Source: Candidatus Xenobia bacterium (GTDB lineage Bacteria; Vulcanimicrobiota; Xenobia; Xenobiales; QWHO01). Taken from it: a stretch of 64,000 bases of DNA. The stretch covers positions 64,001 through 128,000 of the forward strand of contig BTUM01000008.1 of NCBI GenBank assembly GCA_045863235.1, in the 5' to 3' direction. Positions 37,297 to 52,944 of the stretch are shown piece after piece (the stretch's first letter is position 1; every line of letters begins with the position of its first letter). The notes beneath the pieces are model-generated. The model saw only the letters and a program-made list of their open reading frames with translations, was not told where the DNA came from and did not search any database. The translations under genes were made by a program, and so were the position numbers.

Positions 37297-39312
37297 GTGC
37301 AGATCCCGCCCACCGGATTGACCTTTTCCCCGGCGCTGCGGCCCCAGGTCGCTGCCGACGCTCAGGCTCCTGTGCAGGCAGCGGCCGAACAGCGGCCGGC
37401 CCGTCTGCCAACGGTGGCCGAGCTGAGGCAATGGGCCATGTGCGAGCCGGAGCGTGCCCAGAGCGAGCTGCTCGGCCTCCTGAAAGGGCGAGCCGAAGGT
37501 CTGGCGCGCCTGCGAGCCGTGCTGACGGCGGCCAAAGGCGATGAGCCTTTGAAACGTTTGCTCGAGCCGCACCGGCAGCAGATCTGGAGCACGGGCAACA
37601 TGGCCTTCAATCTCAAGCTGCTGGAGGAGAAGCACCTGCCCGACACCGGTTTCGCGCAGCGCGAGTTGTGGCCCCGGGTGGGCGAGAGCTCGGAAGCGAC
37701 CCGAGCCCTGCAGACCTTGTGGGAAGTGGCAGGCCCTTACGACCGTAATCAAAGGTTGGCTCCTCTGCTGACCCTGGAGCGACCGATCGGCCAGGAAATG
37801 GGCACCCTGCTGGAACAGCAGTTCACCCGTTGGAGTCGGCCGGGAGCCGAGTTGCGTGCTCACCTGCAGGCCCGGGTGGAGCAGTCGCTGACCCGGCTGG
37901 CCGAGCACCCCCTGGGCCAGGCGCTGCCCGACCCCGAGCTGGAGGCCCATCGCCAGCAACTGCAAGCGCTGACGCCATTCGTGGAGGACAAGCAGCTGGC
38001 CCGGCGCTTGCTGGAGCGGGTGATGGCCGATCCCAGCTTGGCGCTCTTTAGCGAAGCCGGCAAGGCTTCGGGACTTGCCAGCCTTGTCTACCAGCGGATC
38101 TTTCCCGACCCGGAAATCAGCCAGGCTCTGCTCTCTGAGCTTGGCAGCGAGCTGAAGTCGGCCGGAAGCCTGGCCGGGCTCTCCGAGCGGGGTCTACGGG
38201 TGTTCGGTGTGCTGGTGGCCCAGGCCGACGACCGGTCCGTGATGGGCCCGCTGGGGGCCGTTCTGGAAGACGAATTCCGCCGGCCTCACAGCGACCCGAA
38301 TCAGGCCGAGCTGCTGACCCGCCTGCTGGTTCTGAATGCCAGTGCCTGCTCCAGCGCCTTGCAGGGCAACTGGCGCATGGAAGAGAGCTTTCCACGCTTG
38401 CGCCAGATGGTGGAGCTGCTGGTGGAGTCCAAGTGGGCCCACGCCGACCGCCAGTGGCACCACCTCGAGAACGGCTGGGCGGGGGGGCTGACCGAGCAGT
38501 TGGAGAAGCACCTCTGGCACGGAATCTATGGCCAGGATCCGGTGCCCACCGTGGCCCCCGTTCAGGACGGGTCCCTCAGCCTGAGCGTCAAGGCGGGCCG
38601 CCAGCACGTGGCCGAAATGCTGGACCAGTTTGCCGCCGGACCCGAGAATCCCAAGGCCGGGGCGGCCATCCAGATCCTCGAGCATCTGGCCCAGCGCGAT
38701 CAGATCCTGGCCGATCACCTCCTGGCCGACAGCAAGACCCTGCTGCGAGACTGGAACTCCGTGCCCGTCGAAGGGGTGCGCTACGCTGTCGCGCGCCTGC
38801 GTAACCGCCTGCTCGAGCGCAACCTGAAGCTGCCGGCCGCCGAGCGCGAGGCAAAGCGCGAGGAGACGCTGCAGATCGCCGCCAGCATGGGACGCGACGG
38901 CGTGCCCCTGGTGACCGCACTGCAGACCTACTACCCGGCCGTGACCCCGGTGGCCACCCGGCTGCTCGATCCGCAGGCGGTGCTGGCCCTGTATCAGGAG
39001 GTGCAGTCACACGGGCCCAACCTCAATCAGCGCTTCGAGTGGGTGGATCGCCTGCTGACCCTGGTACAGGCTCAGGGCTCGGAGCACGTCTTGGAGGATA
39101 CCCTGAAGGGCTATCGGCGGCTGGAAGAGCTGCTGGCCAGCGGCCAGAGCCTGACTCAGGCCATGCAGGTGGTCGCTCTGGAGATCCTCGACCTCAATGG
39201 CCTGCTCGGCGGGCAGCCGAACGCCGGCCGAGCGCCCACCATGATTCGGGAGGATTCCACCTCCACGACTTTCGGAGGCAGCCGGCTCAAGAAACGACGG
39301 GTCAGCGACTGA
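37297..39312 (+). CDS. Hypothetical helical protein with C-terminal IxE-x6-FGG-xx-LKKR motif
   Basis: 671-aa ORF, host codon usage, no recognisable domain. Confidence 0.8.
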   Translation: MQIPPTGLTFSPALRPQVAADAQAPVQAAAEQRPARLPTVAELRQWAMCEPERAQSELLGLLKGRAEGLARLRAVLTAAKGDEPLKRLLEPHRQQIWSTGNMAFNLKLLEEKHLPDTGFAQRELWPRVGESSEATRALQTLWEVAGPYDRNQRLAPLLTLERPIGQEMGTLLEQQFTRWSRPGAELRAHLQARVEQSLTRLAEHPLGQALPDPELEAHRQQLQALTPFVEDKQLARRLLERVMADPSLALFSEAGKASGLASLVYQRIFPDPEISQALLSELGSELKSAGSLAGLSERGLRVFGVLVAQADDRSVMGPLGAVLEDEFRRPHSDPNQAELLTRLLVLNASACSSALQGNWRMEESFPRLRQMVELLVESKWAHADRQWHHLENGWAGGLTEQLEKHLWHGIYGQDPVPTVAPVQDGSLSLSVKAGRQHVAEMLDQFAAGPENPKAGAAIQILEHLAQRDQILADHLLADSKTLLRDWNSVPVEGVRYAVARLRNRLLERNLKLPAAEREAKREETLQIAASMGRDGVPLVTALQTYYPAVTPVATRLLDPQAVLALYQEVQSHGPNLNQRFEWVDRLLTLVQAQGSEHVLEDTLKGYRRLEELLASGQSLTQAMQVVALEILDLNGLLGGQPNAGRAPTMIREDSTSTTFGGSRLKKRRVSD

Positions 39313-41407
39313 ACTGCCGTTCGAGCTCCTCGGCCCGGGGGACGGCGGGATCGCCTGGCTCCCAGCCAAACCAGAGATAGACCACAGCTGGCAGAGTGAC
39401 TCTGCAGTAGTAGCGCAACCGCTGGGTGGCCACCGGCCGGCCGTTCTCTGACCAGACCCAGCCGGCGAAGGGCTGGGTACGACCCTTATGCATCTCGTAG
39501 CGAAAGCGAGTCGGAAAAACCGGATGGATGCGGGCCTGCAGGCGGCGCCCCCGGAGCAGGCAACCCATGTCGCCTCGCATCATCACGTCGATGTGAGGGG
39601 CGAGCAGCAAGACCTCCTCGAGTTGCACTTCCCCCTCGCCCTCCAGGCTGTCGCGCACGGCCAGGCGCTTCTTCTCGGGCTGGAACAAGAGCTCACGACG
39701 CAGACGGAAGGGTCGCTCGGAGCCCATCCAGACGTCGCGGCCGCCGGCCATGGAGAGGCCTTCGCGGCGCTGCTCCACGGCCAGGCGATGTCCCTCCCCG
39801 CTGAGCTGCAGGGGCTCGAGCTCTCCGGCCACGCGCGGGGCTGAGTGGCAGGAAAGGGAGGCGAAGGCCTGAGCCACCGAGCCTGGAGCTGCCGGCCCTC
39901 CCGGCTCGACCAGGACGGGCTCGCCCTCCAGGGTCAGGACCAGGCTGAGCAGATCGTCGTGGGCAAGGGGGGGCGGGAACCTGGACTCGGGGGGTGCCTC
40001 CAGCGGCAAGCCCCGCAGCAGGCACCAGCTCGAGCGCGACTCCCAGCCGTCGCGCACGGTCACCAGCCCGGCCTCGGGATAATATCCTCCCACCGGGGGC
40101 AGAGCGGTATCGCTCAACGAGTCATAGCGCGACTGGGCCGAGGGGCCGAACCACCAGAGCATCTCCATCGGCATCTCCCCCGCCAGTCGCGCCAGCGCCC
40201 CGTGCCCCAGGGCCAGAGCCCCGAAAGCGAGCAAGCGCTGGGTGTGCTCGGAGGGGCCACAACAGCGGCCCAACAGGCCCGGACCCTGGCCACGTCCGAT
40301 CTCGGGCACGAGCGCGTTGGGCGGGCGCAGATGGCAGAGGGCCTCCAGAGCCTCCTGGGCCCGAGCTGCCAGGACATCACCGGTGTGCATCTGGTTCAGG
40401 CGGTGCAGAGCTGCTGGCAGCAACAGCCACTCGCAAGCCTGGCGCTGGGCTGCCGCGGAACCGCTCTTGTGCAGTCCGTCCTGGCCCAACTCGTTCTGGA
40501 CACAGATCGGGAAAGCCGCCGATGACTGGCGCAGCCACTTCTTGCTGAGCACCAGCTCGGGCAGGGTCAGGGCCAGCACCTGCAGCGCCGAGGCCGTGCA
40601 GAGGCGGGGGTGCTCGTGCAAGCTGCGCGACAGAGCCAGACCGTGTAACAGCAGCGTGCGCAGTACACGGCCCAGCACATCGGCCGTCAACTGGGCCGAC
40701 TTGAGGAAGTAGTGCATGGCCAGCAGCCAGTTCAGGGTGCGGTGGGCCACCATCTCGGGGTCCATCCAGTTGACCCCGAAGAGAGGCGGATTGCGCTCGC
40801 TCCAGTCCACCATCTGCACGATGAACTCGCTGGCGAAGCGCTCATGGCCGGTCAGCCAGTAAGCCCGCCCCATGTCCACGAAGTGACCGTGACGGTTGAA
40901 TTCCCAGGTCACCTGGATGGCCGCCTCGGGACTCGTCCCCGCCAGCTGCTCCTCGAGGTCCTCCAGCGAGCCGTACATCCACGAGCCGCCCTTGAAGTCG
41001 GAGAACCAGTCGATGGCTCCCTGAAAGCTCTGCTCCTCCACCCCCAGAGGGCCAAAGGTGTGGTGCAGCGCCCGCTCGACCTCGCTCAGAAGCCGGTTGG
41101 CCTCTTCGCGCCGCTCGGCCAGAGCCGGCCGCAGCATATCGCACTCGGTGAAGTGCAAGAAGAATAGCGGACGGATCCGGTCGTGGAAGTGCTCGAGCAG
41201 GTGCTCGGAAGCCTCATGCAGGCGCTGGGCCCGGGCAGCGGCCCGAGCTTCCTCCAGCGCCGCGGTGAGCGGACTGAGCTGAAAGTAGAGGTCAGGCTCC
41301 TCGAGCGTGAGCGGAAGGCGCTCGTGCACATGCTCTGAGAGCCGCGCCTCCAGGTCTTCCTGGTGGCCCAGCAGAGTCTTGACGCGCTTCTTCAGACCCT
41401 TGAACAA
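39302..41407 (-). CDS. Heparinase II/III-like (alginate lyase fold) protein
   Basis: WEFNRH, AYWLTG, NPP..GVNW, HDDLLS, EPG, HS; start (TTG 41407) uncertain. Confidence 0.8.
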   Translation of the reverse strand: MFKGLKKRVKTLLGHQEDLEARLSEHVHERLPLTLEEPDLYFQLSPLTAALEEARAAARAQRLHEASEHLLEHFHDRIRPLFFLHFTECDMLRPALAERREEANRLLSEVERALHHTFGPLGVEEQSFQGAIDWFSDFKGGSWMYGSLEDLEEQLAGTSPEAAIQVTWEFNRHGHFVDMGRAYWLTGHERFASEFIVQMVDWSERNPPLFGVNWMDPEMVAHRTLNWLLAMHYFLKSAQLTADVLGRVLRTLLLHGLALSRSLHEHPRLCTASALQVLALTLPELVLSKKWLRQSSAAFPICVQNELGQDGLHKSGSAAAQRQACEWLLLPAALHRLNQMHTGDVLAARAQEALEALCHLRPPNALVPEIGRGQGPGLLGRCCGPSEHTQRLLAFGALALGHGALARLAGEMPMEMLWWFGPSAQSRYDSLSDTALPPVGGYYPEAGLVTVRDGWESRSSWCLLRGLPLEAPPESRFPPPLAHDDLLSLVLTLEGEPVLVEPGGPAAPGSVAQAFASLSCHSAPRVAGELEPLQLSGEGHRLAVEQRREGLSMAGGRDVWMGSERPFRLRRELLFQPEKKRLAVRDSLEGEGEVQLEEVLLLAPHIDVMMRGDMGCLLRGRRLQARIHPVFPTRFRYEMHKGRTQPFAGWVWSENGRPVATQRLRYYCRVTLPAVVYLWFGWEPGDPAVPRAEELERQFSR

Positions 41408-41414
41408 ACCGCCT

Positions 41415-42527
41415 TCAGACGGCGCCCACGGGCGCGCCAAAGAACTGATGGACCACTTTGGAGACGGTGGCCGTCTGGTCCTCGGTCAACTCGGGGAACA
41501 TGGGGAGAGAAAGCACTTCGTGCTGGGCCTTCTCGCTTTCGGGCAGGCTTCCCGCCGGAATCTGCAGATCGGCGAAAAGGGGCTGCTGGTGCAGGCAGAC
41601 GGGATAGTAAACCACGCTGCCTACGCCGTGGTCATTGAGGTAGGCCTGCAGCTCCTTGCGCCGGGCGGTGCGAACCGTGTACTGATGATAGACGTGGTAC
41701 GCGCCCGGGGTCGCCTGAGGCACCGTCACCACGTCGCTCAAGAGCTTGTGGTAGCGCTCGGCCACCTGGCGACGGCAGGTGTTCCACTGATCGAGATACT
41801 TCAGCTTGACACGCAGGGCGGCGGCCTGGATCTCGTCCAGGCGGCTGTTGGTGCCCAGAATTTCGTGGTGATACTTCTTGGCGCTGCCGTGGCCGCGCAG
41901 CTTGCGCACCTTCTCGGCCAGCTCGGGGCGGTTGCTCAGCACCATTCCGCCGTCCCCGATCCCGCCCAGGTTCTTGGACGGGAAGAACGAGAAGCAACCG
42001 AAGTCGCCGATGGTCCCCACTTTGCGGCCGTTGTAAGTGCAGCCGGCGGCCTGGGCGCAATCTTCGATGACGGCGAGCTTGTGGCGCGAGGCCAGGGCCA
42101 TCAGCTCGTCCATCGGAGCGGCATTGCCGTAGAGGTGGACCACCACGAGGGCCCGCGTGCGGGGGGTGATGGCCCGCTCCACGCTGGCCGGGTCGAGGCA
42201 GTAAGTCACCGGGTCGATGTCGGCAAAGACCGGCCTGGCTCCCGCCAGTGCCACCGCTCCGGCCGTGGCCATGAAGGTGAACGAGGGACAGATCACCTCG
42301 TCGCCAGGGGCGATGTCGAGGGCCCGCACCGCCAGGTGCAGGGCGTCGGTGCCGTTGGCCACGCCGATGCCGTGAGCGGCCTGGTTGTATGCTGCAAACT
42401 CGTTCTCGAAGGCCTGGACCTCGGGGCCCAGAATGTAGTGGGTGCCACGCAGTGCGCGCAGGACGGCCTCTTCCAGCTCCTGGCCGATATTCTTGTACTG
42501 GCTGGCCAGCTCTAAGATCGGGATCAT
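41415..42527 (-). CDS. DegT/DnrJ/EryC1/StrS nucleotide-sugar aminotransferase
   Basis: NGTDAL, VHLYG, EDCAQA, SFFPSKNLG, NSRLDEIQAA. Confidence 0.95.
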   Translation of the reverse strand: MIPILELASQYKNIGQELEEAVLRALRGTHYILGPEVQAFENEFAAYNQAAHGIGVANGTDALHLAVRALDIAPGDEVICPSFTFMATAGAVALAGARPVFADIDPVTYCLDPASVERAITPRTRALVVVHLYGNAAPMDELMALASRHKLAVIEDCAQAAGCTYNGRKVGTIGDFGCFSFFPSKNLGGIGDGGMVLSNRPELAEKVRKLRGHGSAKKYHHEILGTNSRLDEIQAAALRVKLKYLDQWNTCRRQVAERYHKLLSDVVTVPQATPGAYHVYHQYTVRTARRKELQAYLNDHGVGSVVYYPVCLHQQPLFADLQIPAGSLPESEKAQHEVLSLPMFPELTEDQTATVSKVVHQFFGAPVGAV

Positions 42528-43591
42528 ACGGTCTCCTTTGCTCTTTTGCTCGGGACGGCTTCGTGGGCGAGGACGTCCAGAATTCGTTCGGCCGTGAGGC
42601 CGTCTCCATAAAGCTCGGGGTGGGCGGCCGGGGGACGGGTTGTTAGCCCCGCCAGGATGCGGGCCCGGTCGTGCCCCACCAGCGTGTTCCAGCCGGCGGC
42701 CACCGTCTCCACCCACTCGGTCTCTTCGCGCAAGGTCAGGCAGGGGGTCTTGAGCAGATAGGCTTCCTTCTGCAGCCCTCCCGAGTCGGTCAGCACCAGG
42801 CTGGCCCGCTCGAGCCAGGCCAGAATCTGGCGGTGGCCGGCAGGCGGCAACAGACGCACGGGCCCGTCCTCGAGCAGCCGGTCCAAGCCGGTCTGGCGCA
42901 GGATCTGCAGGGTGCGAGGGTGACAGGGGAAGAGCACCGGCTGGCCGTGCTCGCGCAACACCGTCAAAATGACTTCCAGGCCCTCAGGAGTCATCTCGGC
43001 CCGGTGCATGGTCAGCAGCAGGTAGGGGCCTTCGGGGGCCGGCTCGGCGGGCGGGCCGGCCAGAGTGCGGCGCAGGGAGTCCACCATGATGTCGCCCACC
43101 AGGTGCACGCCGCCGGTGATGTTCTCCCGGGCCAGGTTGTCCACCGCAGTCTGGCAGGAGGCGAAATTCCAGCGGGCCAGATGGTCGGTCAGCACCCGAT
43201 TCACCTCTTCCGGAACGCGCATGTCGAAGCAGCGCATCCCCGCCTCGACGTGGGCCACCGGTATGTGCAGCTTGGCGGCCGCGAGAGCCCCCGCCAGGGT
43301 GCTGTTGGTGTCGCCGAAAACCAGCAGCACGTCGGGCGACTCGGCGAGCAGGATCTCCTCCACGCGCTCCAACATGCGCCCGGTCTGGGCTCCGTGGGGA
43401 GCCGAGCCCACCCCCAGGTGGTGCTGAGGGCGAGGCAGCCGCAGCTCGTGGAAGAACTGGTCGGACATCCCCTCATCGTAGTGCTGGCCGGTATGCACCA
43501 GCACGCTTTCAAATCGGCCTGCCATGGGCTCGATCAGAGGGGCCAGCTTGATAAACTGGGGGCGGGCCCCCACCACGGTAACGATCTTCAC
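42524..43591 (-). CDS. wecB: UDP-N-acetylglucosamine 2-epimerase (non-hydrolysing)
   Basis: GARPQFIK, HTGQHYD, GDTNSTL, HVEAG, TDSGGLQKEA. Confidence 0.95.
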   Translation of the reverse strand: MKIVTVVGARPQFIKLAPLIEPMAGRFESVLVHTGQHYDEGMSDQFFHELRLPRPQHHLGVGSAPHGAQTGRMLERVEEILLAESPDVLLVFGDTNSTLAGALAAAKLHIPVAHVEAGMRCFDMRVPEEVNRVLTDHLARWNFASCQTAVDNLARENITGGVHLVGDIMVDSLRRTLAGPPAEPAPEGPYLLLTMHRAEMTPEGLEVILTVLREHGQPVLFPCHPRTLQILRQTGLDRLLEDGPVRLLPPAGHRQILAWLERASLVLTDSGGLQKEAYLLKTPCLTLREETEWVETVAAGWNTLVGHDRARILAGLTTRPPAAHPELYGDGLTAERILDVLAHEAVPSKRAKETV

Positions 43592-45354
43592 GCTCCCCGC
43601 CTTTCTGGCAACAGCACGGGCGGCCTCAATTGCGATTCGTAGATGCGCGAGTAGAAACCACCCCGCTCGAGCAGGGTGGCGTGCTCACCCTCTTCCACCA
43701 CCTGACCGCCCTCGAGCACCAGAATGCGGTGGGCATGGCGGATGGTGTTGAGACGATGGGCGATGACCAGGCAGGTGCGCCCGCGCATGGCGCGCTCGAT
43801 GGCCTCGGTGATCTGGGCCTCCGACTCGGAGTCGATGGAGGAGGTGAACTCGTCTAAAATAAGCACTTTCGGGTCGCGCAGCATGGCTCGGGCGATGGCG
43901 ATCCGCTGGCGCTGGCCGCCACTCAAGCGGGCGCCGCGCTCGCCCACCTGGGTGGCATAGCCGTCCGGCAAGCGGGTGATGAAATCGTGGGCGTTGGCCA
44001 GCCGCGCCGCTTGCTCGAGCTGCTCGGGGGTAGCCACGAACCCGCAGGCGATGTTCTCGGCGATGGTCCCGGTAAACAGGGAAGACTCCTGGATCACCAC
44101 CCCGACCTGCCGGCGGAGGCTGGAGGCCGTCACCTGGCGGATGTCGTGCCCGTCCACCCGCACCACTCCGGCGGTGGGGTCGTAGAAACGGGGGATCAAG
44201 TTGACCAGGCTGGTCTTGCCCGCCCCGTTCGGGCCCACGATGGCCACCACTTCACCGGGCGCGATGGTGAGCGTCAGATCGCTCAAGATCGGCTTACCCG
44301 GCTGGTACTCGAAGCCCACGCCCTCCAGGCGAATCTCGCCCCGGATCGGAGGCAGCTCGCGGGCGTCGGGCGCGTCGGCGATATCAGGTGCCTCGTCGAG
44401 CACCTCGAAGAGCCGCTTACCGGCAGCGGTGGCGACCTGGAACCGGGCATAGCTGTCGGCCAGCTTGTTGATGGGATTGGAGGTCATGATCATCAGCATC
44501 CAGTACTGGATAACGGCCGTGAACGTGACCGTGCCCTGCAGAATGCGCAGAGCGCCGAACCAGATGATGGCCACGATGGCCAGTGCGCACAGGATGTCGG
44601 TGAGGGGCAACTGGAACGAGGAGATCTGGATCAACTTGAGCTGAGCTGCGAAGTTCTCTTCGTTCTTGCGCTCGAAACGCTCAATCTCAAGATTCTCCCG
44701 GGTGTAAGCCTTGACGACCTTGATGTTGCCCAGGCTTTCGTGCAGGATGGCGATGAGGTCGGCCAGCCTGACCTGGATGCGTTCGGTCACAGTGTTGATT
44801 CTCTGCCCGATACGCGAGATGGTGATCCCCAGCAGAGGGCTCAGAGTCAAAACCATCAGCGTCATCTGCCAGTCGAAGTAAACCATCAGGCTGAATGCCC
44901 CGGCCACCATCAACAGGTTCTTACCGAAGTCAGCCAGCAACGGATACACGCTGGTGCTGGTCTGAATGTCATTGGAGAGGCGGGAGATGAGGTCACCCTG
45001 GTTGTTGCGGTCGAAATAGGGGACGCTCATGCGCTGGAGATGGCGGAAAATCGCGTTGCGAAAGTCGCGCACGGCCAGTTGACCGGCCATGTCCACCAGG
45101 TAGCGCATCAAGTAGCCCACCACGCCGCCAGCCAGCATCACAAGCATGAATCCGCCGCAAATGAGGTTCAGCTCGATCAGCGGGTCGCGGCCCTGGTAAT
45201 TGAAGTTCTCCTCGGTCATCAGCCCGAACAACCTTCCGACGAAAAGGGGCTGGACCAGTTGCGTGACAGTACCCAGGCAGGTCATGATCAAACCGCCCAG
45301 GACATACTTCCAGTAGGGTCGCAGATAGCCCAGAATGCGGCCTAGAATCCGCAT
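43588..45354 (-). CDS. MsbA-like ABC transporter (fused TMD-NBD)
   Basis: Six-TM domain, GPNGAGKT, LSGGQRQRIAIAR, ILDE, AHRL. Confidence 0.92.
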   Translation of the reverse strand: MRILGRILGYLRPYWKYVLGGLIMTCLGTVTQLVQPLFVGRLFGLMTEENFNYQGRDPLIELNLICGGFMLVMLAGGVVGYLMRYLVDMAGQLAVRDFRNAIFRHLQRMSVPYFDRNNQGDLISRLSNDIQTSTSVYPLLADFGKNLLMVAGAFSLMVYFDWQMTLMVLTLSPLLGITISRIGQRINTVTERIQVRLADLIAILHESLGNIKVVKAYTRENLEIERFERKNEENFAAQLKLIQISSFQLPLTDILCALAIVAIIWFGALRILQGTVTFTAVIQYWMLMIMTSNPINKLADSYARFQVATAAGKRLFEVLDEAPDIADAPDARELPPIRGEIRLEGVGFEYQPGKPILSDLTLTIAPGEVVAIVGPNGAGKTSLVNLIPRFYDPTAGVVRVDGHDIRQVTASSLRRQVGVVIQESSLFTGTIAENIACGFVATPEQLEQAARLANAHDFITRLPDGYATQVGERGARLSGGQRQRIAIARAMLRDPKVLILDEFTSSIDSESEAQITEAIERAMRGRTCLVIAHRLNTIRHAHRILVLEGGQVVEEGEHATLLERGGFYSRIYESQLRPPVLLPERRGA

Positions 45355-45376
45355 GGATTGAACCGCGCCCACCTGC

Positions 45377-45850
45377 TTACCCCAGCGGCTCGAGCAAGAA
45401 GATCTTTTGCCCGGACTCGACCACGGCGGCGTTCTCGACGAGGATGCCGGCAACGCGACCGGGCATCTCAGCGGTGATCTCGTTCATCAGCTTCATGGCT
45501 TCAATGATGCAGAGAGTCTGGCCCACGCTCACATGGTCGCCCACCTGCACGAAGGGCGGAGCCCCCGGGTTGGGGGAGCGATAGAAAACACCCGCCAGAG
45601 GCGAGACCACTGGTCTCAAGTTCTCGTTGGCAGGCTCGGGAGCGGCCGTAGCAGGCCGGACCGGAGAGCGTCTGGCCGCCACCGCCAGCGGCGTCTGGAC
45701 GGGGACCGCTACCGGTTGAGCCTCCCCCGTATCCACGATCAGGTGGATACGCGCGTTCTCGTTGCGATAATCGATCTCGGCCAGACCTTCTTCCCGGGCC
45801 ACCCGAGCCAGAGCCCGGGCTAATTCGAGATGTTCCTTCAATCCGCTCAC
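45377..45850 (-). CDS. accB: Acetyl-CoA carboxylase biotin carboxyl carrier protein
   Basis: SPLAGVFYRSP, IEAMKLMNEI biotinylation motif. Confidence 0.95.
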   Translation of the reverse strand: MSGLKEHLELARALARVAREEGLAEIDYRNENARIHLIVDTGEAQPVAVPVQTPLAVAARRSPVRPATAAPEPANENLRPVVSPLAGVFYRSPNPGAPPFVQVGDHVSVGQTLCIIEAMKLMNEITAEMPGRVAGILVENAAVVESGQKIFLLEPLG

Positions 45851-45924
45851 CTCTCGCTGAGGAGCGAGTATCCCACCTGCTCCCAGGCATGACGATCTGC
45901 GACCCCCGCCACAACAGTCGCCTC

Positions 45925-45953
45925 AACATGCCAAAATCCAGCGAGAATGTCAA
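45925..45953 (-). promoter_or_regulatory. Sigma70-type promoter for accB operon
   Basis: Minus strand TTGACA-17 nt-CATGTT with extended TG. Confidence 0.5.
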
Positions 45954-46043
45954 GAAAATCCGGGGTCCGCGGAGGAGCCCTACGCCCCGCCAGGGACCGC
46001 CCGCCTGCACCTGTCTGGAGTAGAGGGCCTCTCGAAGACGCTG

Positions 46044-48269
46044 TTACGAACGTCGGGAAGACGAGGAAGAGCGCCGGCGACGTCCTCCTCCGCTGCTCGA
46101 GGAGGCGGAACGTTGCCCGCCGCCACCCGAGCCACCCGAGCCACCTGAGCCGCTCGAGCGGCGGCGCCGACGAGAGCTGTCCGAATCGCCATCCGAAGCC
46201 CGGTAGCGCGAAGCAGCGGCCCGACTCGACTCGAGCAAAGCCAGCTTGGAATCGACCGGGGCTGGCTCATCGTCGTCGTCTCGAGTCCGACGGCCACGCG
46301 GCTCGTCATAGTAGTCCTCGTCGTGATAACGAGGGGCTGGCTCGCTGCGGCGGTAATCGTCCTCGTAAGAGGGTGGCGCGCTCCTGCTACCGCTCCGGCT
46401 CCCGCTCCCACCCCCGCTTGTGCTGGCGCTACTGCGACCGCGCCGCCCGCGGCCCGAGCTTTCGTAGGCTCCGGTTTCCACGCTCGATTCGCGCGCAGAG
46501 CGGTACCGGTCGTCGCGTCCTCGACCCGAGCGAGGGGCCTCCTCGCGACTGTACTCCTCCCGCTCGCGATAAGCGGGCGGCTCGTCACGATAATCCTCTC
46601 GCTCATAGCGGGGCGAATAGTCTTCTCGCTCGTAGTCGTCATAGTAGCGGCGAGTCGAGCTCTCCTCGTATCGATCGTCGGGCGGGTAAGCAGCCGCTCG
46701 CTCGGAAGTCGAGGTGCGGCTCTCTGCTTCGGAATCACGCCGACTGCGACGGCGCCGACGCGAGCGACTGGAAGTGCGCTCCTCTTCGGGCTCGTGAGTC
46801 GAGACGTGGCGGGTCTCGACCGGAGGAGCATCGTCCTCCTGACCTCGCCGACGGCGACGGCGGCGCTTGGAGCGCCCGTCCCCCCGCTCGGAAGCGGTCG
46901 CAGGCTCTTGCTGCTGGTCGTAGTGCACCTCGAGGTCTGACTCCACGTTGAAGTGGCGCCCGCGCAGAGCTCCGTTTCGCCGGGTGCCGCCACGCCCAGA
47001 GCGGCTCTCCTTCTCTCGTGGAGCGCGCTCGGCCGGAGCCACCGCGCCTCCCATGCCGAGTCGACTGGCCAGCCGGTGGGCCAGTTCGCTCAGGTTGTAG
47101 CGATCCTTGTGGTCGCTGTGACGGTCGTGAACCTGGGCCACGCCCCGGATAGCGTCCTTCTCGCTCAACAGAACGAGGAAACGAGGAGCCTCGGGAGCTT
47201 CCTCTCCGCCCAGCGCCATTTCAGCGTAAATCCCAGCCTCGCGCAGCACATTCAGAACCGGCATCAGAAGACGGGTGGCTTCCTCGCCTTCCGGCTGCAG
47301 GTAAACCGATGGAGAGGGCCGCGTGAACTCGCCGGGCACAGCTTCCAGAATCGCTTCCAGTTGGAGGGCAAAGCCGACGGCCGGGGTATCCGGTCCACCC
47401 AGGGTCTCCACCAGGCCATCATAACGACCACCGGTGCCCAGCACCGATTCGCCGTGTCGAACCTGGAAGATTGTGCGGTTGTAATACTCCAGGTCGCGCA
47501 CCACGCGCGGATTCAGGTCGTGAGGAATCTTCATCTCGGCCAGATAGGCCTTGAGCTGACTGAAATGCTGCTTACAGGCCGGGCAGAGCAGGCCGAACAT
47601 GGTGGGGGCCACCTGCCCGAGCTCAGCGCAACTCTTCTCGTTGCAACCCAGCGTCCAGAGCGGATGAGTCTTGTGCTTGCGCTTGCAAGTTCCACAAAGC
47701 TCGTTGGAATGGGACGAGAAGTACTCCTTGAGAACCTCATGGTAAGCCGGGCGACACTTGTCGCATCCCAACGAGTTGAGCTCGAAGACCACGTCGCTCA
47801 AGCCGATGCGCTTGAGGAACGCCCAGGCCAGGGCGATCACCTCGGCATCCTGGGCCGGGTGGGGCGAACCCAGAGCTTCGACCCCGAACTGGTGGCTCTG
47901 TCGGCTGCCTTCCTCGGTCTCCCGGCCGATCAGGAAGACGGGGGCCAGGTAGTAGAACTTGCTGACGCCCTGGTTCTTCTCGTTGAGGTTGTTCTCATAG
48001 TAAGCGCGTACCACCGAAGCGGTGACATCGGCTCGCAAGGCCAGCTTCTGGCCAAACTTGTCGTGGAAGGTCCAGAGCTCGCGCTCGACGAGCCCGGCCA
48101 GGACTCCCATCCCCCTCACGAAAAGCTCCGCCTTTTCGAACAGAGGGGTTCGAATCTCGAGATAACCGTATTGCTGACTGAGTAACCGGGCCTGACTCTC
48201 GATCAGTTGCCAGCGGGATGTCTCTTCCGGTAGTAGATCACGGGTGCCACGCACCGCTCGGACAGACAT
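46044..48269 (-). CDS. Histidyl-tRNA synthetase paralog, probably inactive, with long Arg/Ser/acidic disordered tail
   Basis: RGTRDLLP, EIRTPLFE, Cys-rich insertion, VRDLEYY, GGRYDGL, PAVGFA; motif 2/3 Args missing. Confidence 0.9.
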   Translation of the reverse strand: MSVRAVRGTRDLLPEETSRWQLIESQARLLSQQYGYLEIRTPLFEKAELFVRGMGVLAGLVERELWTFHDKFGQKLALRADVTASVVRAYYENNLNEKNQGVSKFYYLAPVFLIGRETEEGSRQSHQFGVEALGSPHPAQDAEVIALAWAFLKRIGLSDVVFELNSLGCDKCRPAYHEVLKEYFSSHSNELCGTCKRKHKTHPLWTLGCNEKSCAELGQVAPTMFGLLCPACKQHFSQLKAYLAEMKIPHDLNPRVVRDLEYYNRTIFQVRHGESVLGTGGRYDGLVETLGGPDTPAVGFALQLEAILEAVPGEFTRPSPSVYLQPEGEEATRLLMPVLNVLREAGIYAEMALGGEEAPEAPRFLVLLSEKDAIRGVAQVHDRHSDHKDRYNLSELAHRLASRLGMGGAVAPAERAPREKESRSGRGGTRRNGALRGRHFNVESDLEVHYDQQQEPATASERGDGRSKRRRRRRRGQEDDAPPVETRHVSTHEPEEERTSSRSRRRRRSRRDSEAESRTSTSERAAAYPPDDRYEESSTRRYYDDYEREDYSPRYEREDYRDEPPAYREREEYSREEAPRSGRGRDDRYRSARESSVETGAYESSGRGRRGRSSASTSGGGSGSRSGSRSAPPSYEDDYRRSEPAPRYHDEDYYDEPRGRRTRDDDDEPAPVDSKLALLESSRAAASRYRASDGDSDSSRRRRRSSGSGGSGGSGGGGQRSASSSSGGGRRRRSSSSSRRS

Positions 48270-48309
48270 GATTCACAAACCTCCGCGGATGAGGGACCGG
48301 GCGCATGGC

Positions 48310-48338
48310 TTGCGCGCCGACGAAGTCCCTTCGATAAT
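48310..48338 (+). promoter_or_regulatory. Sigma70-type promoter pointing into ORF-free structured region
   Basis: TTGCGC-17 nt-GATAAT. Confidence 0.45.
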
Positions 48339-48344
48339 GGTGGG

Positions 48345-48643
48345 CGCCGGCCGTGCCACTCGGGGAGGATGCTCGCGATCGTCTCAGTGTCTGCGACCTT
48401 TCGTCTCGCAGAAAGGATGGCGCGACAAAGGCCGGTGAACGTGGTTCCACGATACCTGACGTTTCACTATTCAGTTTGCGCCGAATCGGCTCTCTCTTTG
48501 TCGCCATCGGTTGCTCGCGTCGGAGCATTCCCCTTCGGTATCAGGGCATCGGACCCTGGGGATGTCGGGGTAGGTTAACCCGGCGGCCTGGAGGGGAAAG
48601 TGGCCTGCTTTCCACGCTGTCATCGCAACGGCTACCCGACATT
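48345..48643 (+). ncRNA. Candidate structured ncRNA (6S-like rod ~48353-48541 plus a second domain 48561-48643)
   Basis: Nested complementarity GGATGCTC/GAGCATTC, GATGGCG..ACAAAG/CTTTGTCGCCATC, TCTGCGA/TCGCAGA; G-U pairs favour + strand; upstream promoter. Confidence 0.45.
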
Positions 48644-48692
48644 GAGTTGTTTCGGGGAAGAAGCCAAGTTTCCTCTCCGGCCAGGAATGGCC

Positions 48693-50000
48693 TCAGGAAA
48701 CGACCTCTTCGATCAATGGCCGCGGGCTGGTTGGGGTGGCTGCAATCGAGATAGCTTCGCCGATCAGAGCCCGAGAGGTCTGGAGTTGGGAACGGTCGTT
48801 GACGTGGAACGTCAGCAAAGGCTCTCCGGCTTCGACCCGATCGCCCAGGCGTTTGTGGAGGACAAGTCCGACGGCGTGATCGATGGGGTCGTCCTTGCGC
48901 AGTCGACCTGCCCCCAGCACCATCGCCGCGCGGCCCAGGGTCTCTGCCTGCAGACTTGCCACAAAGCCCGACTCAGGGGCCGGATAGTCCTCCAGGTGAG
49001 ACGCGGTGGGCAAGAGTCCCGGGTCGTCCACCACCCGAGCGTCCCCTCCCTGGGCACTGATGAGTTCACGCAACTTCTCGGCGGCCGCGCCGGACTGTAT
49101 CAATCGGCCAGCCTCGGCGCGCGCAGCCGAAAGGTCCGACTGCAAACCGGCCATTTCCAGCAGATGAGCGGCCAACTCGCGGGCCACCTGAGCCAGCGCC
49201 GAATCTGCCCGCTGACCCTGGAGAATCTCAATGGCCTCACGAAACTCGAGCGCGTTGCCGATGTGCGTTCCCAAGGGTTGCTCCATATCCGACAGGGCGG
49301 CGCGAACCTTGCGACCCAGGCGCTTGCCAATGGCCACCATCGAGCGAGCCAGGCGACGGGCGTCTTCCAGATTCTTCATGAACGCCCCGTGACCAAACTT
49401 GACGTCCAGCAGGATCGCATCGGCGCCACAGGCGAGCTTCTTGCTCATGATCGAGCTGGCGATCAGGGGGATGGAATCCACCGTGGCGGTCACATCGCGC
49501 AGGGCGTACATCTTGCCATCGGCCGGCACCAGGCTCCCGGTCTGGCTGATGACGGCCACACCGATGCGGCGCACCTGCTCGAGAAACTCCTCGGCTGACA
49601 GGTTGACGCGCAGCCCGGGCACAGACTCCATTTTGTCCAGCGTGCCTCCGGTGTGGCCCAGACCCCGCCCCGACATCTTGGCCACCCGGGCCCCTGCGGC
49701 GGCAGCCAGTGGTGCTAGAACCAGCGTGGTCGTATCCCCCACCCCTCCGGTGGAGTGCTTGTCGACCTTGACGCCGGGGATACTGGAAAGGTCGACCGTG
49801 TCCCCCGATGCCACCATCGCCTCGGTGAGCCAGCCAGTCTCCTCGTCGGTCATGCCCCGAAGAAAGACTGCCATCATCCAGGCCGACATCTGGTAGCTCT
49901 CCATGCGGCCAGCCACGAACTCGCTGATCAAGAAGCGGATTTCCTCGGCGCTGTGGGCCTCTCCGTCGCGCTTGCGTCGGATCAGGTCGTAGACCCTCAT
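48693..50000 (-). CDS. pdp: Pyrimidine-nucleoside phosphorylase
   Basis: DKHSTGGVGD, KMSGRGLGHTGGTLDK, SSIMSKK. Confidence 0.96.
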   Translation of the reverse strand: MRVYDLIRRKRDGEAHSAEEIRFLISEFVAGRMESYQMSAWMMAVFLRGMTDEETGWLTEAMVASGDTVDLSSIPGVKVDKHSTGGVGDTTTLVLAPLAAAAGARVAKMSGRGLGHTGGTLDKMESVPGLRVNLSAEEFLEQVRRIGVAVISQTGSLVPADGKMYALRDVTATVDSIPLIASSIMSKKLACGADAILLDVKFGHGAFMKNLEDARRLARSMVAIGKRLGRKVRAALSDMEQPLGTHIGNALEFREAIEILQGQRADSALAQVARELAAHLLEMAGLQSDLSAARAEAGRLIQSGAAAEKLRELISAQGGDARVVDDPGLLPTASHLEDYPAPESGFVASLQAETLGRAAMVLGAGRLRKDDPIDHAVGLVLHKRLGDRVEAGEPLLTFHVNDRSQLQTSRALIGEAISIAATPTSPRPLIEEVVS

Positions 50001-51519: not shown

Positions 51520-52773
51520 TCAGAACACCTCGCTCAGCCAGCGACCGACCCGGGTCAACATGACCTTGACCTTGGACGGGCCACCCTCATCCTCGAGAGA
51601 ATCCGCGCTGCGCACGGCTCGCCGGACAGCGGCGTGCAAAATCAGGCCCACGGCTGAGGAATAAATGGGCGAAGCCAGCGAGTCCATCAAGCCCGGGGGA
51701 TAGCAGGGCGTCGCGATGCGGGCCGGAAGGCTCAACTCGCGGTGAGCCAGATGAGCGATCCCCGGCAACTGGGCCGTGCCCCCGGTAATGACCAGGTTGG
51801 TGACGACCAAACCCATTCGCTCAGCCAGCTGGATCTGCTTGCCCACCCAGTCGAAGACATCCAGCAGACGAGCCTCGAGCACTTCGGCCAGTTGGATGCG
51901 GGAGACGGGAACCTTCTGATCTCCGGCCAGGCTCAAGGCCTCCAGCATCTCGTCGTCACCCTCGTGATAGTCGGGCGAAGCGACCCCACGCTCGAGCTTG
52001 AGCCGCTCAGCCTCGGCCGGGGGAATCCGGAAGAAACGGGCAAGATCGTGGGTCAGGAAGTCGCCCGCCACCGGAAGCACCCCCGAATGGCCGATCTCTC
52101 CGTCACAGTAAACGGCCAGGTCGACCGTACCGGCCCCGATATCGATCATTGCCGTGCCCAGCTTGCGCTCTTCCTCGGTCATCACGGCCAGGGCCGAAGC
52201 GATGGAAGAGGCCACCATACCGTCATTCTCGACCTCCAGGCCAGCTTTCTGGACGCACTTGCGCATATTCTGCAAGAAGGCCGAGGCGGCAGCCACCACA
52301 TGGGTGTTCACCTCCAACCGAATACCAGATAGGCCAACCGGATTGCGGATGCCGCTCTGGCCATCGACCGTAAAGCCACGAGGCACGATGTGAAGAATCT
52401 CGCGGTCCGAAGGAATGCCCACCATGCGTGCGGCATCGATCACGCGCCGCACGTCGGAACTGGTCACCTCGCCCTCGGGGCTGGAAATCGCCCACACGCC
52501 CTGAGCGGGCAAAGAGCGCAGATACTCACTGGAGAGACTCAGGTAGACCGGACCGACAGGATAACCGGCCTGCTTCTCAGCATCGCCCACGGCCTCTTCA
52601 ATCGAGCGAACCGTTTCTTCGGGGTCGACCAGGGCGCCTTTGCGCAGACCAAGGCAGGGGCTGACTCCGTGCGAAACGACCTCCAGCTCGCCACCGGCAT
52701 CGAGCTCTGCGATCACGCAAGCCACTTTGCTCGTGCCGATGTCGACGGCGGTAAGAACTTCCATCCTGGGCAT
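51520..52773 (-). CDS. ftsA: Cell division protein FtsA
   Basis: DIGTSKV, GLRKG, SHS2 insert (NPVGLSGIRLE), DIGAGT, C-terminal amphipathic RWLSEVF. Confidence 0.96.
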   Translation of the reverse strand: MPRMEVLTAVDIGTSKVACVIAELDAGGELEVVSHGVSPCLGLRKGALVDPEETVRSIEEAVGDAEKQAGYPVGPVYLSLSSEYLRSLPAQGVWAISSPEGEVTSSDVRRVIDAARMVGIPSDREILHIVPRGFTVDGQSGIRNPVGLSGIRLEVNTHVVAAASAFLQNMRKCVQKAGLEVENDGMVASSIASALAVMTEEERKLGTAMIDIGAGTVDLAVYCDGEIGHSGVLPVAGDFLTHDLARFFRIPPAEAERLKLERGVASPDYHEGDDEMLEALSLAGDQKVPVSRIQLAEVLEARLLDVFDWVGKQIQLAERMGLVVTNLVITGGTAQLPGIAHLAHRELSLPARIATPCYPPGLMDSLASPIYSSAVGLILHAAVRRAVRSADSLEDEGGPSKVKVMLTRVGRWLSEVF

Positions 52774-52944
52774 ACTTGCACCCCTCAAAGGGTAGTCTCT
52801 GGTGTAGCTGGCAAGCTCGCTGCACGCTTACTTGCGGTGTTGGCCTAATTGGTTCGGGCCGGCTCTTGAATTTCCTTCCAGGCCAGAAGAAAAAGCCCGA
52901 CGATCCGCGCTCTGGGTTTCTTGGAGCGGGCCCGCGACTCCTCG

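Follow-up and report, generated by a model that had tools for sequence, protein, structure and literature searches.

A probable histidyl-tRNA synthetase pseudoenzyme with a long disordered tail at the ancestral hisS locus of Candidatus Xenobia bacteria

Why would a bacterium that has an intact histidyl-tRNA synthetase (HisRS) on another contig conserve a HisRS-like gene that has lost its ATP site? The question is raised by an open reading frame in a 64,000-nucleotide stretch of a Candidatus Xenobia bacterium contig (hereafter the window), located on the reverse strand at 46044..48269 and encoding a protein of 741 aa plus stop (P0001), here called pseudo-HisRS; its features given below lie on the same strand. 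The coding sequence begins with an ATG at 48269, 10 nt downstream of a Shine-Dalgarno GGAGG (48280..48284), and a GGAGG/GAGG-type site was seen by eye before the start in most of 12 relatives. The corresponding frames are 741 and 743 aa long in the related genomes G002 and G003, and longer (795 aa) in G004. A preliminary description had placed the gene at 47050-48269, which captures the first ~406 residues, but the frame continues into a disordered tail of 336 residues (residues 406-741, 46047..47054).

An Rfam search of the whole window returned no family at gathering score, with three chance-level matches in 45800-48800 (E 1.8-3.9), and no T-box or leader RNA was found upstream of pseudo-HisRS. 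The upstream spacers of the 12 relatives, compared by eye with no alignment or folding, are unalike except for the ribosome-binding site. Given this lack of a conserved RNA leader or T-box, nothing ties pseudo-HisRS expression to histidine supply. In RNA libraries of two studies, contigs span most of the frame, tail included; one run has a short gap inside the tail, and in the other no listed piece covers ~400 bases at the 5' end. These contigs are no proof of transcription, as DNA carry-over is possible; the gene is also present on DNA-library contigs, and the DNA and RNA libraries together come from several studies.

The first 405 residues (47055..48269) form a HisRS-like core with class II catalytic, helical insertion and anticodon-binding-like domains, as indicated by PF13393 (151 bits, the sole Pfam family found in the 741 aa), TIGR00442 (298 bits, cut-off 286.75, matching only model positions 2-361 of 406), an AF2 model (pLDDT 95.0, pTM 0.89) and Foldseek, which aligned the model with the histidine-bound HisRS 4e51_A (TM 0.88) and with 1adj_A (0.84). 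Across the bacterial-type HisS structures 4e51, 1adj/4rdx, 1kmm and 1qe0, the likeness extends over the whole length of the fold (TM 0.77-0.88). Pseudo-HisRS was aligned with the E. coli (Ec) HisRS chain 1kmm using HMMER, and the numbering is identical across motif 2. This alignment confirmed both the residue numbers given in the preliminary description and its claim that R113, E115, R121, F125 and R311, established ATP-binding residues of HisRS, are lost. The degenerate motif 2 (FLIGRETEEGSRQSHQ, residues 112-127, 47889..47936) carries R113 to L, E115 to G, R121 to G and F125 to S while retaining R116, R123 and Q127, and the degenerate motif 3 (GFALQLEA, residues 299-306, 47352..47375) carries G308 to Q and R311 to A.

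The same losses define a family of tailed proteins, for which we found no description in the literature. We compared 63 tailed homologues with 57 canonical HisRS relatives, with pocket and ATP-site tallies made on 77 family representatives and tails compared in 76. R113, E115, F125, G308 and R311 are each retained in 0/63 tailed proteins, whereas canonical relatives have arginine at R113, R121 and R311 (57/57), an acidic residue at E115 (56/57), phenylalanine or histidine at F125 (57/57) and G308 (57/57). The substitutions are conserved in relatives, with dead motifs in all 63 tailed homologues and in none of the 57 canonical proteins; the exception is R121, which is glycine here but still arginine in 22/63 relatives. 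All 77 representatives retain at most one of the five ATP residues. The tailed proteins are monophyletic inside bacterial-type HisS (SH-aLRT 100) in a quick maximum-likelihood tree of 79 rows, and pseudo-HisRS shares 38-46% identity with canonical relatives. Conservation is order-wide: the gene was found in 38/41 related genomes and all ten genera, its open frames ranging from 559 to 1090 aa. All 36 listed full-length relatives have an intact frame, the three fragmentary matches lie at contig ends, and the core is under strong purifying selection (dN/dS 0.034; tail 0.15 against G002 and 0.11 against G003). The family has also fixed new specific residues, namely W66, W205, D259, E261 and G115. 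Sister lineages have followed three routes to a dead enzyme, through loss of the ATP site, of R259, or of both.

In contrast to the ATP site, the histidine-binding motifs T85, Q127, E131, R259, Y263/264 and GGRYD are all present, and LRADVT, HQFGVE, RDLEYY and GGRYDG can all be read in pseudo-HisRS. In the histidine alpha-amino contact loop LRADVT (residues 78-83, 48021..48038), T85 is retained and Ec E83 is replaced by D; this loop has D in 62/63 and T in 62/63 tailed proteins. Intact type-2 HisRSs also carry D (10/10), so this substitution is compatible with histidine binding. The HisA loop VRDLEYY (residues 257-263, 47481..47501) retains Ec R259, Y263 and Y264, kept in 59/63, 62/63 and 62/63 of the family, and the second histidine motif GGRYD (residues 280-284, 47418..47432) is retained with G, G, R and D in 63 and Y in 59 of the 63. 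In most of the family the ten pocket residues are 94-100% conserved, and at least nine of them occur in 68/77 members, which bears out the earlier view that histidine-contacting elements persist. However, 7/77 representatives, proteins of ~850-1000 aa from small-genome genera, keep five or fewer, so histidine binding cannot be the common function of the whole family. In addition, the HisA loop carries D259 and E261 in 62/63 tailed proteins each, against G and D in 57/57 canonical ones (Ec G260 and D262); the changes G260 to D and D262 to E remodel this loop, and the ligand is not necessarily histidine.

Regions that contact tRNA in HisRS are altered too. The insertion domain (residues 169-232, 47574..47765) contains eight cysteines, and changes at its tRNA 3'-end contacts replace R205 with W and K210 with N. 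Position 205 is W in 63/63 tailed but R in 57/57 canonical proteins, and K210 is found in 0/63 against 57/57. The Cys-rich insertion pointed out previously is present but not special: C192, C195, C209 and C214 occur in all 63 tailed proteins, and the first three also in 57/57 canonical relatives, with C214 in 50/57. Net charge over motif-2 loop residues 113-122 is -1 in the tailed family against +2 in canonical enzymes. The anticodon-binding-like domain (residues 320-405, 47055..47312) keeps its alpha/beta fold according to DSSP of the model, but its second helix (RSLKxQxKxA) is deleted in this genus, with 8 residues missing, and degenerate in the family. The proposed shortening of this domain therefore applies to this genus, whereas family-wide the stretch is near-normal in length (median 27 vs 30 residues) and degenerate in sequence. 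PF03129, the HGTP anticodon-binding domain, was not detected in pseudo-HisRS at E<=0.01 and is listed for 2/63 tailed proteins (P0049, P0052) against 56/57 canonical ones.

A second, intact hisS was predicted in the preliminary description and was found on another contig of the genome (G000:C59). It scores 344.8 bits, is intact at 16/16 checked active-site positions and is of the Nostoc/eukaryote-like type (type 2), the nearest solved structure being 3net (316 bits); TIGR00442 matches twice in 30/31 genomes of the class. The genome has a single tRNA-His gene, with encoded G-1 and C73; an apparent adjacency of the type-2 hisS to this gene, suggested by similar coordinate numbers, was rejected because the contigs differ (C59 vs C13).

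The locus itself indicates which of the two genes is the older resident. Directly downstream of pseudo-HisRS lies accB (BCCP; 45377..45850, reverse strand; TIGR00531 122 bits, cut-off 115.2), which served as a synteny anchor and holds this position in 8/12 order-level genomes. In other classes, accB adjoins the canonical hisS in 5/7 genomes and ABC or hepII genes do so in the remaining two; accB, hepII-like or ABC genes thus lie directly downstream of pseudo-HisRS and of other-class canonical hisS alike. Type-2 hisS loci share these immediate neighbours in 0/5 cases, two having a weak partial ABC-like match ~3 and 6 kb away. Since pseudo-HisRS occupies the canonical hisS position of the sister classes (hisS-accB), it is a retired ancestral gene and not a duplicate; the term paralog used previously does not apply, the gene being orthologous by position to the ancestral housekeeping hisS.

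The tail is rich in R, S, D, E and Y. Its last 332 residues comprise 23% R+K, 20% D+E, 18% S, 10% G, 6% Y and 4% hydrophobic residues, with Arg runs and Tyr/acidic blocks. Gaps relative to G002 and G003 are all whole codons, and strain variants of 9 nt and 6 nt are in-frame. An ESM Atlas search with the tail alone gave no fold or family match (best feature score 0.77, best TM 0.19, below a useful level). One of only two hydrophobic clusters, islet 1 (RRNGALRGRHFNVESDLEVHY, residues 430-450, 46920..46982), shows few or no differences among P0001 and P0003-P0006, although core identity falls as low as 73%. Islet 2 (PAPVDSKLALLESSRAAASRYR, residues 669-690, 46200..46265) is a candidate short linear docking motif conserved in five genus-level proteins. 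An Arg run, KRRRRRRRG (residues 468-476, 46842..46868), is followed by further runs at 46737-46763 and 46149-46175, and the C-terminus (GGGRRRRSSSSSRRS, 46047..46091) is Arg/Ser-rich. Runs of at least four R occur in 41/76 family tails, poly-R leading into acidic residues in most of the printed tails, and a run of at least three R within the last 40 residues in 36/76 (a count of flags). Similar R/D/E-rich disordered regions occur in two proteins of the same genome, PNPase (frame of 973 aa) and Rho (frame of 772 aa), which counts in favour of the reading proposed below. However, the composition of such charged disordered tails is not specific, and these two are among ten other frames picked by a filter of our own making.

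Based on residue conservation, from which every functional statement on pseudo-HisRS is derived, we propose that the original bacterial-type hisS was retired to become a pseudoenzyme and now acts as a histidine-responsive scaffold or regulator rather than an enzyme, a reading we regard as plausible although just short of probable. In this scenario, the class ancestor would have acquired the second, intact Nostoc/eukaryote-like HisRS, which would now charge tRNA-His. The old gene stayed at the ancestral hisS-accB locus, lost the class II ATP site (the motif 2 and motif 3 arginines, E115 and F125) and most tRNA acceptor-end contacts, and acquired its long disordered tail, in which Arg, Ser, Tyr and acidic residues abound. 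The product would be a HisRS-fold homodimer with a preserved pocket in which free histidine or a closely similar ligand could still be bound, and with two polyampholyte tails whose arginine runs and short conserved hydrophobic islets could tether RNA, a protein partner or both. The family-wide loss of the ATP-site residues makes pseudo-HisRS almost certainly non-aminoacylating, as suspected previously. Histidine binding by the preserved pocket is an even call, and tethering of RNA or a partner by the arginine-rich tail is conceivable but somewhat doubtful. That histidine occupancy of the dead dimer would switch tail self-association, RNA capture or partner docking is a speculative and quite unlikely extension.

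Known HisRS-fold systems provide points of comparison. Pseudo-HisRS resembles bacterial-type HisS (TIGR00442) in its histidine motifs, the insertion-domain Cys cluster and the locus beside accB, but differs in the absence of the motif 2/3 arginines, E115, F125 and G308, in the acidic motif-2 loop, R205W, the loss of K210 and the degenerate anticodon-domain helix, in the added 336-aa disordered tail, and in that another HisRS does the housekeeping. HisZ, the regulatory subunit of short-form ATP phosphoribosyltransferase that mediates histidine inhibition of HisG (PMC9437257), likewise derives from HisRS and lacks aminoacylation, as pseudo-HisRS probably does, and 2/6 HisZ proteins of this phylum also have L at the R113 position. 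However, pseudo-HisRS scores 153 against a TIGR00443 cut-off of 271.65 and belongs to a separate clade, HisZ and type-2 HisRS being split from bacterial-type HisS and the tailed family with support of 100 in the quick tree. True HisZ genes of the phylum adjoin hisG and their products lack a charged tail, whereas hisG (PF01634, TIGR00070), hisB (IGPD) and hisD (histidinol dehydrogenase) were not found in the 97.6%-complete genome studied here, where controls matched 14/14. A HisZ identity was consequently rejected, in agreement with the preliminary description, which considered the protein not to be a typical HisZ. Within the order, hisG occurs in only 4/29 genomes, never on the pseudo-HisRS contig, and those four still keep the pseudoenzyme; many other-class genomes also lack hisG, so histidine auxotrophy is not specific to pseudo-HisRS carriers.

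Among the alternatives, a ligand-independent scaffold fares best, although we consider it unlikely. Here the dimeric core would present two tails that dock on, for example, the cell division machinery or an RNA-degradation body, the pocket being kept for folding. This would account for the seven members that dispense with the pocket while retaining core and tail, and for clade-specific tail islets: in place of islet 2, other clades have KAFIPALxLGG and GLNWSI motifs, and a VDSKLALLESS islet also occurs, with the GLNWSI-type pattern [LIV][NDS]W[ST][LI] found in 47/76 tails, 6-38 residues from the C-terminus. Furthermore, ftsA lies two to three genes upstream of pseudo-HisRS and is syntenic in 12/12 order-level genomes, and KAFIPALxLGG loosely resembles, by eye only, the C-terminal peptides LEPAIFRR and DLPAIWRR of the genome's FtsZ proteins. 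That likeness is weak, however, and the islet is absent from this genus. A complex prediction, run without controls, for FtsA (51520-52788, residues 9-422) with tail residues 655-704 scored 0.00 against a mark of 0.34, which speaks neither for nor against binding. A degenerate DNA pattern for LNWSI gave 1-12 hits per genome in five related genomes, similar to a reversed control (4-7), and the pseudo-HisRS genes themselves accounted for four of these; the pattern was too loose, and nothing in the five genomes points to use of the motif by other proteins. Moreover, the conservation of the ten pocket residues in most members exceeds the usual demand of folding.

In the eukaryotic kinase GCN2, a catalytically inactive HisRS homologue serves as the sensing module and has a C-terminal region beside it (PMC4335047). 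In a similar way, pseudo-HisRS could instead sense or sequester uncharged tRNA(His), the dead core docking tRNA-His and the Arg-rich tail adding unspecific RNA affinity. We consider this rather unlikely. Residues Tt R7, R115 and R122 contact G-1 in the T. thermophilus (Tt) complex, according to PMC4357726, and their counterparts are largely kept: R7 in 58/63, K/R116 in 62/63 and R123 in 62/63, with all three basic in 65/77 members. The predicted anticodon-domain fold, the Arg runs of the tail and a single tRNA-His with encoded G-1 and C73 also agree with this reading. On the other hand, the same text reports Tt E114 as essential and in contact with A76, Tt R204 and K209 as holding the C72-C75 phosphates, and Tt R197 as a third 3'-end residue of the insertion domain. 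With R197, R204 and K209 placed at positions 198, 205 and 210, and Tt G72 likewise placed, from ungapped coordinate ranges and spacing, all 63 tailed proteins have replaced two of the three insertion-domain residues (R205 and K210) along with most contacts of the motif-2 loop. Glycine takes the place of E115 (Tt E114) in 62/63, Q118 is missing from 63/63, F or H occupies the position matching the G-1 pocket glycine (Tt G72) in 61/63, and the motif-2 loop has become acidic. The anticodon-domain basic helix is deleted or degenerate with PF03129 undetected, and no kinase, other output domain or further Pfam domain accompanies the core. Sequence kinship to GCN2 is remote, and its chain 8t7t was not among the PDB matches of pseudo-HisRS. 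These observations weaken the GCN2-like tRNA sensor put forward in the preliminary description, although for tRNA binding as such the residue evidence is mixed, with G-1 basic residues kept and 3'-end contacts lost.

An improbable third alternative is that pseudo-HisRS is a HisZ-like allosteric subunit of another enzyme tuned by histidine, most plausibly the upstream nucleoside phosphorylases (pdp, punA). The pdp gene lies directly upstream in 12/12 order-level genomes, with PNP upstream of pdp in 10/12, and neither gene is near the canonical hisS of seven other-class genomes (7/7) or near two class-level variants. HisZ offers a precedent of a dead HisRS regulating a phosphoribosyl-type transferase (PMC9437257), and Pdp weakly matches a TrpD phosphoribosyltransferase model (47 bits, below cut-off). 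However, a neighbourhood shared by related genomes does not count as independent evidence, the gene and pdp lie 219-520 nt apart at most loci (~1.2 kb in G004), usually with a separate ribosome-binding site in the spacer, and the tail is left unexplained.

It is very improbable that pseudo-HisRS is a still-active, unusual isoform, such as a stress or backup enzyme with non-canonical ATP binding. It does pass the NCBI hisS cut-off, sources name it histidine--tRNA ligase, and R259 and the histidine pocket are retained, but all 63 tailed proteins have replacements at both class-defining arginines and at E115, F125 and G308, and the tRNA 3'-end contacts are lost too. No class II synthetase missing both arginines is known to us to be active. 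A decaying pseudogene or assembly artefact without function, which catalytic residue loss alone would fit, has a negligible probability and is rejected by the intact frames of relatives and the low dN/dS, as well as by the new invariant residues and the recovery of the gene from DNA- and RNA-library contigs of several studies.

The retirement of this gene has consequences for annotation and for the study of pseudoenzymes. Because pseudo-HisRS exceeds the TIGR00442 cut-off, the histidine--tRNA ligase label leads automatic annotation to over-count HisRS across an order and obscures the identity of the enzyme that in fact charges tRNA-His. Biologically, the gene is a clear example from nature of a housekeeping synthetase whose role was taken over at another locus and which was retained for a different use, and the three killing routes of the sister lineages make it a good system for pseudoenzyme origins. 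Were the preserved pocket to have retained histidine binding, the HisRS fold would have been reused independently as a sensor for a third time, after HisZ and GCN2, and for the first time in bacteria in combination with a long disordered tail. Should histidine occupancy indeed switch the behaviour of the tails, the quite unlikely extension named above, histidine supply would be coupled to RNA metabolism or translation in a histidine auxotroph without a kinase, giving a condensate-type prokaryotic equivalent of the logic of GCN2 or HisZ with a sensor made from a retired synthetase.

The HisRS-like gene, pseudo-HisRS, is a single open reading frame of 741 amino acids at 46044..48269 on the reverse strand, with an ATG start codon preceded by GGAGG. 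The preliminary description had placed it at 47050-48269, an interval that captures the HisRS part (residues 1 to about 406) and leaves the tail uncovered. The protein matches Pfam family PF13393 at 151 bits and the NCBIfam hisS model TIGR00442 (cut-off 286.75) at 298 bits, and public sources label members of its family 'histidine--tRNA ligase'. The best solved relatives of the core (residues 1-405) are bacterial HisRS (1qe0, 4e-67; 1kmm, 3e-62), and an AlphaFold2 model of the core based on an 82-sequence alignment (mean pLDDT 95.0, pTM 0.89) superposes on entire bacterial HisRS chains (4e51_A, TM 0.88; 1adj_A, TM 0.84).

Aligned by HMMER to E. coli HisRS (1kmm), the protein keeps the E. coli numbering throughout motif 2, which bears out the residue numbers given earlier for the ATP-binding positions: R113 is replaced by L, E115 by G, R121 by G, F125 by S and, in motif 3, R311 by A. 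These five residues are established as the class II ATP site. The best 120 matches of a search of 5.8 billion proteins comprise 63 long proteins with a tail (558-1135 aa) and 57 canonical bacterial-type HisS (415-452 aa). R113, G308 and R311 are kept in 57/57 canonical and 0/63 long proteins, as is an aromatic residue or His at position 125; position 115 is acidic in 56/57 versus 0/63, and R121 is kept in 57/57 versus 22/63. At the histidine pocket, the long proteins retain T85 (62/63), Q127 (61/63), E131 (62/63), R259 (59/63), Y263 and Y264 (62/63 each) and the GGRYD positions (59-63/63). The reported loss of ATP-binding residues next to a preserved histidine pocket is therefore confirmed, as a family trait rather than noise.

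ATP binding by the tailed family is very unlikely to judge by its sequences, because at most one of the five ATP-site residues is left in all 77 family representatives. At least nine of ten pocket residues are kept in 68/77 members, and the pocket is mostly destroyed (five or fewer of ten) in 7/77, a subclade of proteins of about 850-1000 aa. E83 is Asp in 62/63 long proteins, as it is in 10/10 intact enzymes of a second, Nostoc/eukaryote-like type (type 2). Residues that are invariant in this family alone (W66, G115, W205, D259, E261 and others) reveal that a new surface, surrounding what was the active site, is under positive constraint.

The tailed family is also unlikely to dock the acceptor end of tRNA in the canonical way. 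The motif-2 loop has changed from an RPQAGR type (median net charge +2) in canonical proteins to a KEGEE type (-1), and Q118 is lost in 63/63 long proteins. Two otherwise invariant residues of the insertion domain have gone as well: R205 is replaced by W in 63/63, and K210 is kept in 0/63. Mapped by spacing, these two are probably the counterparts of R204 and K209 in T. thermophilus, which form salt bridges to tRNA C72-C75 according to excerpts of PMC4357726; in the same excerpts, the T. thermophilus residues matching E115 and R121 contact A76 and C74 of the tRNA too. Three basic residues at positions with a G-1 contact role in these excerpts are kept, all three being basic in 65/77. The Cys-rich insertion domain noted in the preliminary description is indeed present, although it is inherited and shared with canonical relatives rather than special to pseudo-HisRS: four of its Cys never vary among the long proteins, and canonical proteins share three of these without exception and the fourth in 50/57. 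The shortening of the anticodon-binding domain (8 residues, with the RSLKxQxKxA helix gone) is most marked in the pseudo-HisRS genus; in the rest of the family the segment has a near-normal length and a degenerate sequence.

The source assembly (8.36 Mb, 166 contigs, 97.6% complete) contains the second, intact hisS that had been predicted, a type-2 ORF of 434 aa (contig C59, 344.8 bits) whose motif 2 (WRGERPAQGRFREFYQ) and motif 3 (GISIGVSR) are intact, as are all 16 active-site positions examined. Among solved structures, 3net (316 bits) comes closest to this enzyme, ahead of 6nhi and, next, human cytosolic HisRS. In 30/31 genomes of the class the hisS model finds two proteins: the derived one and, at about 320-400 bits, a type-2 enzyme. 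The source genome has a single tRNA-His gene, with G at position -1 and C73.

Searches for HisG (PF01634, TIGR00070), imidazoleglycerol-phosphate dehydratase and histidinol dehydrogenase found none in the source genome, and each matched 14/14 control genomes; hisG, hisB (IGPD) and hisD were thus not found in an assembly that is 97.6% complete. The source organism looks, from its gene content, like a histidine auxotroph. Across the order, hisG is missing from 25/29 genomes and present in 4/29, always on another contig than pseudo-HisRS, and those members of the lineage that have large genomes seem commonly to be histidine auxotrophs. No HisG was found in the source genome, so a HisZ role for pseudo-HisRS is excluded there; the protein also falls below the cut-off of the HisZ model TIGR00443 (153 versus 271.65 bits) and is separated from HisZ by the tree, in agreement with the earlier view that it is not a typical HisZ. 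True HisZ of other classes adjoin hisG. Four of six HisZ sampled from the phylum, each adjoining hisG, still have the Arg of both motif 2 and motif 3 (loci L024, L025, L028 and L021 of genomes G049, G062, G076 and G071, respectively), and two from family f12 do not.

A quick ML tree was built from 79 rows sampled from larger sets: 30 tailed proteins, 31 canonical ones of bacterial type, 10 of type 2, 6 HisZ and 2 class-level variants; a further 34 tailed and 35 canonical proteins were left out. In this tree the tailed family forms one clade (support 100) within bacterial-type HisS, and a branch of support 100 parts these two together from HisZ and type 2. Pseudo-HisRS had been described as a paralog, an origin that gene order contradicts. 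At order level, 12/12 genomes share the order ftsA, punA (PNP; in 10/12), pdp (nucleoside phosphorylase) and pseudo-HisRS, which is followed by accB in 8/12, with ABC, DegT and heparinase-II/III-like genes often next. Canonical hisS in seven genomes of other classes is directly followed by accB in 5/7 and, in the two that are left, by the ABC or the heparinase-like gene, whereas 0/5 type-2 hisS loci have any of accB, ABC or heparinase-like genes as an immediate neighbour. By position, therefore, the dead gene is the ortholog of the ancestral housekeeping hisS, which the type-2 enzyme has replaced.

Downstream of accB, a block at 39302-45453 on the reverse strand comprises heparinase-II/III-like, DegT-type aminotransferase, UDP-GlcNAc 2-epimerase-like and ABC exporter genes, these names being read from translations and those of accB, pdp and PNP checked against a family library. 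The block is syntenic in many relatives without the epimerase-like gene, which recurs only in genome G004. Beyond it, a 671-aa ORF (37297-39312, forward strand) lies opposite to its neighbours. The 423-nt spacer between pdp and pseudo-HisRS (48270-48692; about 220-520 nt in relatives) had no Rfam match and is possibly an unrecognised leader or promoter region. The window also encodes an FtsZ homologue (26711-27637, forward strand; 90711-91637 of source contig C8; 447-aa ORF) that scores 319 bits against a TIGR00065 cut-off of 295 and has the C-terminal peptide DLPAIWRRARR; the main FtsZ, on contig C2, scores 433 bits and has the C-terminus LEPAIFRRTKGNN.

With the core as query, one strong match was found in 38/41 related genomes, covering 10/10 genera and four families, with open frames of 559-1090 aa; the three genomes lacking a match are 90, 78 and 72% complete. 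Relative to two close relatives, dN/dS is 0.034 in the core and 0.15 and 0.11 in the tail, and all gaps are whole codons. RNA-library contigs of two studies span most of the ORF, tail included, which is compatible with expression without proving it. Public runs also show two strain variants within the Gly/Ser/Arg part of the tail, both of which keep the frame: 9 nt are inserted behind 46146 in two RNA-library runs, and 6 nt are deleted at 46398 in one run.

The tail (residues 406-741) is of low complexity (23% R+K, 20% D+E, 18% S, 10% G, 6% Y, 4% hydrophobic) and gave neither a family nor a fold match. Its hydrophobic residues cluster in two islets, at 430-450 (RRNGALRGRHFNVESDLEVHY) and 669-690 (PAPVDSKLALLESSRAAASRYR), both conserved down to an ortholog of 73% identity while the rest drifts. 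Other clades have a KAFIPALxLGG islet; a GLNWSI-type motif lies 6-38 residues from the C-terminus in 47/76 tails, runs of at least four Arg occur in 41/76, and many tails end in RRRxxRRR. Our own composition filter found tail-like regions in ten other ORFs of the source genome, among them PNPase, with a frame of 973 aa, and Rho, with one of 772 aa, a likeness that hints weakly at an RNA-related role for the tail. The PNPase (contig C62, 44415-46487, reverse strand) carries a C-terminal extension of ~280 aa rich in R/D/E/P, and Rho (contig C2, 171497-173710, reverse strand) an R/E/G-rich insertion of ~330 aa behind its N-terminal domain.

Sister lineages show other ways of disabling the enzyme. 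The proteins of genome G040 and P0152, P0195 and P0137 combine a charged tail with intact Arg in motifs 2 and 3, but R259 has given way to N, Y or H. The G040 form, from a class-level relative (locus L017 on contig C402, a 668-aa ORF from locus position 1548, forward strand), in which the histidine motif RGLDYY (HisA loop) reads NALGIY, is a differently disabled one. The proteins of genome G091 and P0216 are tail-less and degenerate at motif 2, the HisA loop and motif 3. That of G091 (locus L020 on contig C381), a full-length HisRS-like ORF of 441 aa, reads AWFERRPHARYVQDVL, ACDPGYY and GFSARLSA at these sites, and it coexists with an intact type-2 HisRS. Three families of the phylum have the type-2 enzyme only.

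HisZ and GCN2 are known non-enzymes derived from HisRS. On the reading that we consider most likely, pseudo-HisRS would be a non-catalytic HisRS-fold dimer still binding histidine or a close analogue. Its two tails, polyampholyte and rich in Arg, would hold RNA and/or a partner by means of their short docking motifs and their Arg. That it is not an enzyme is highly probable on sequence grounds, the case for histidine binding is evenly balanced, and tethering of RNA or a partner by the tail is somewhat less likely than not. The whole chain in its looser form falls just short of an even chance, and its operation as a histidine-switched scaffold is improbable. No description of the tailed family was found in a full-text literature search, supplements aside, and excerpts of a 2022 review name only HisZ under HisRS paralogs (PMC9437257). 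The tailed family joins the known class of synthetase-derived pseudoenzymes.
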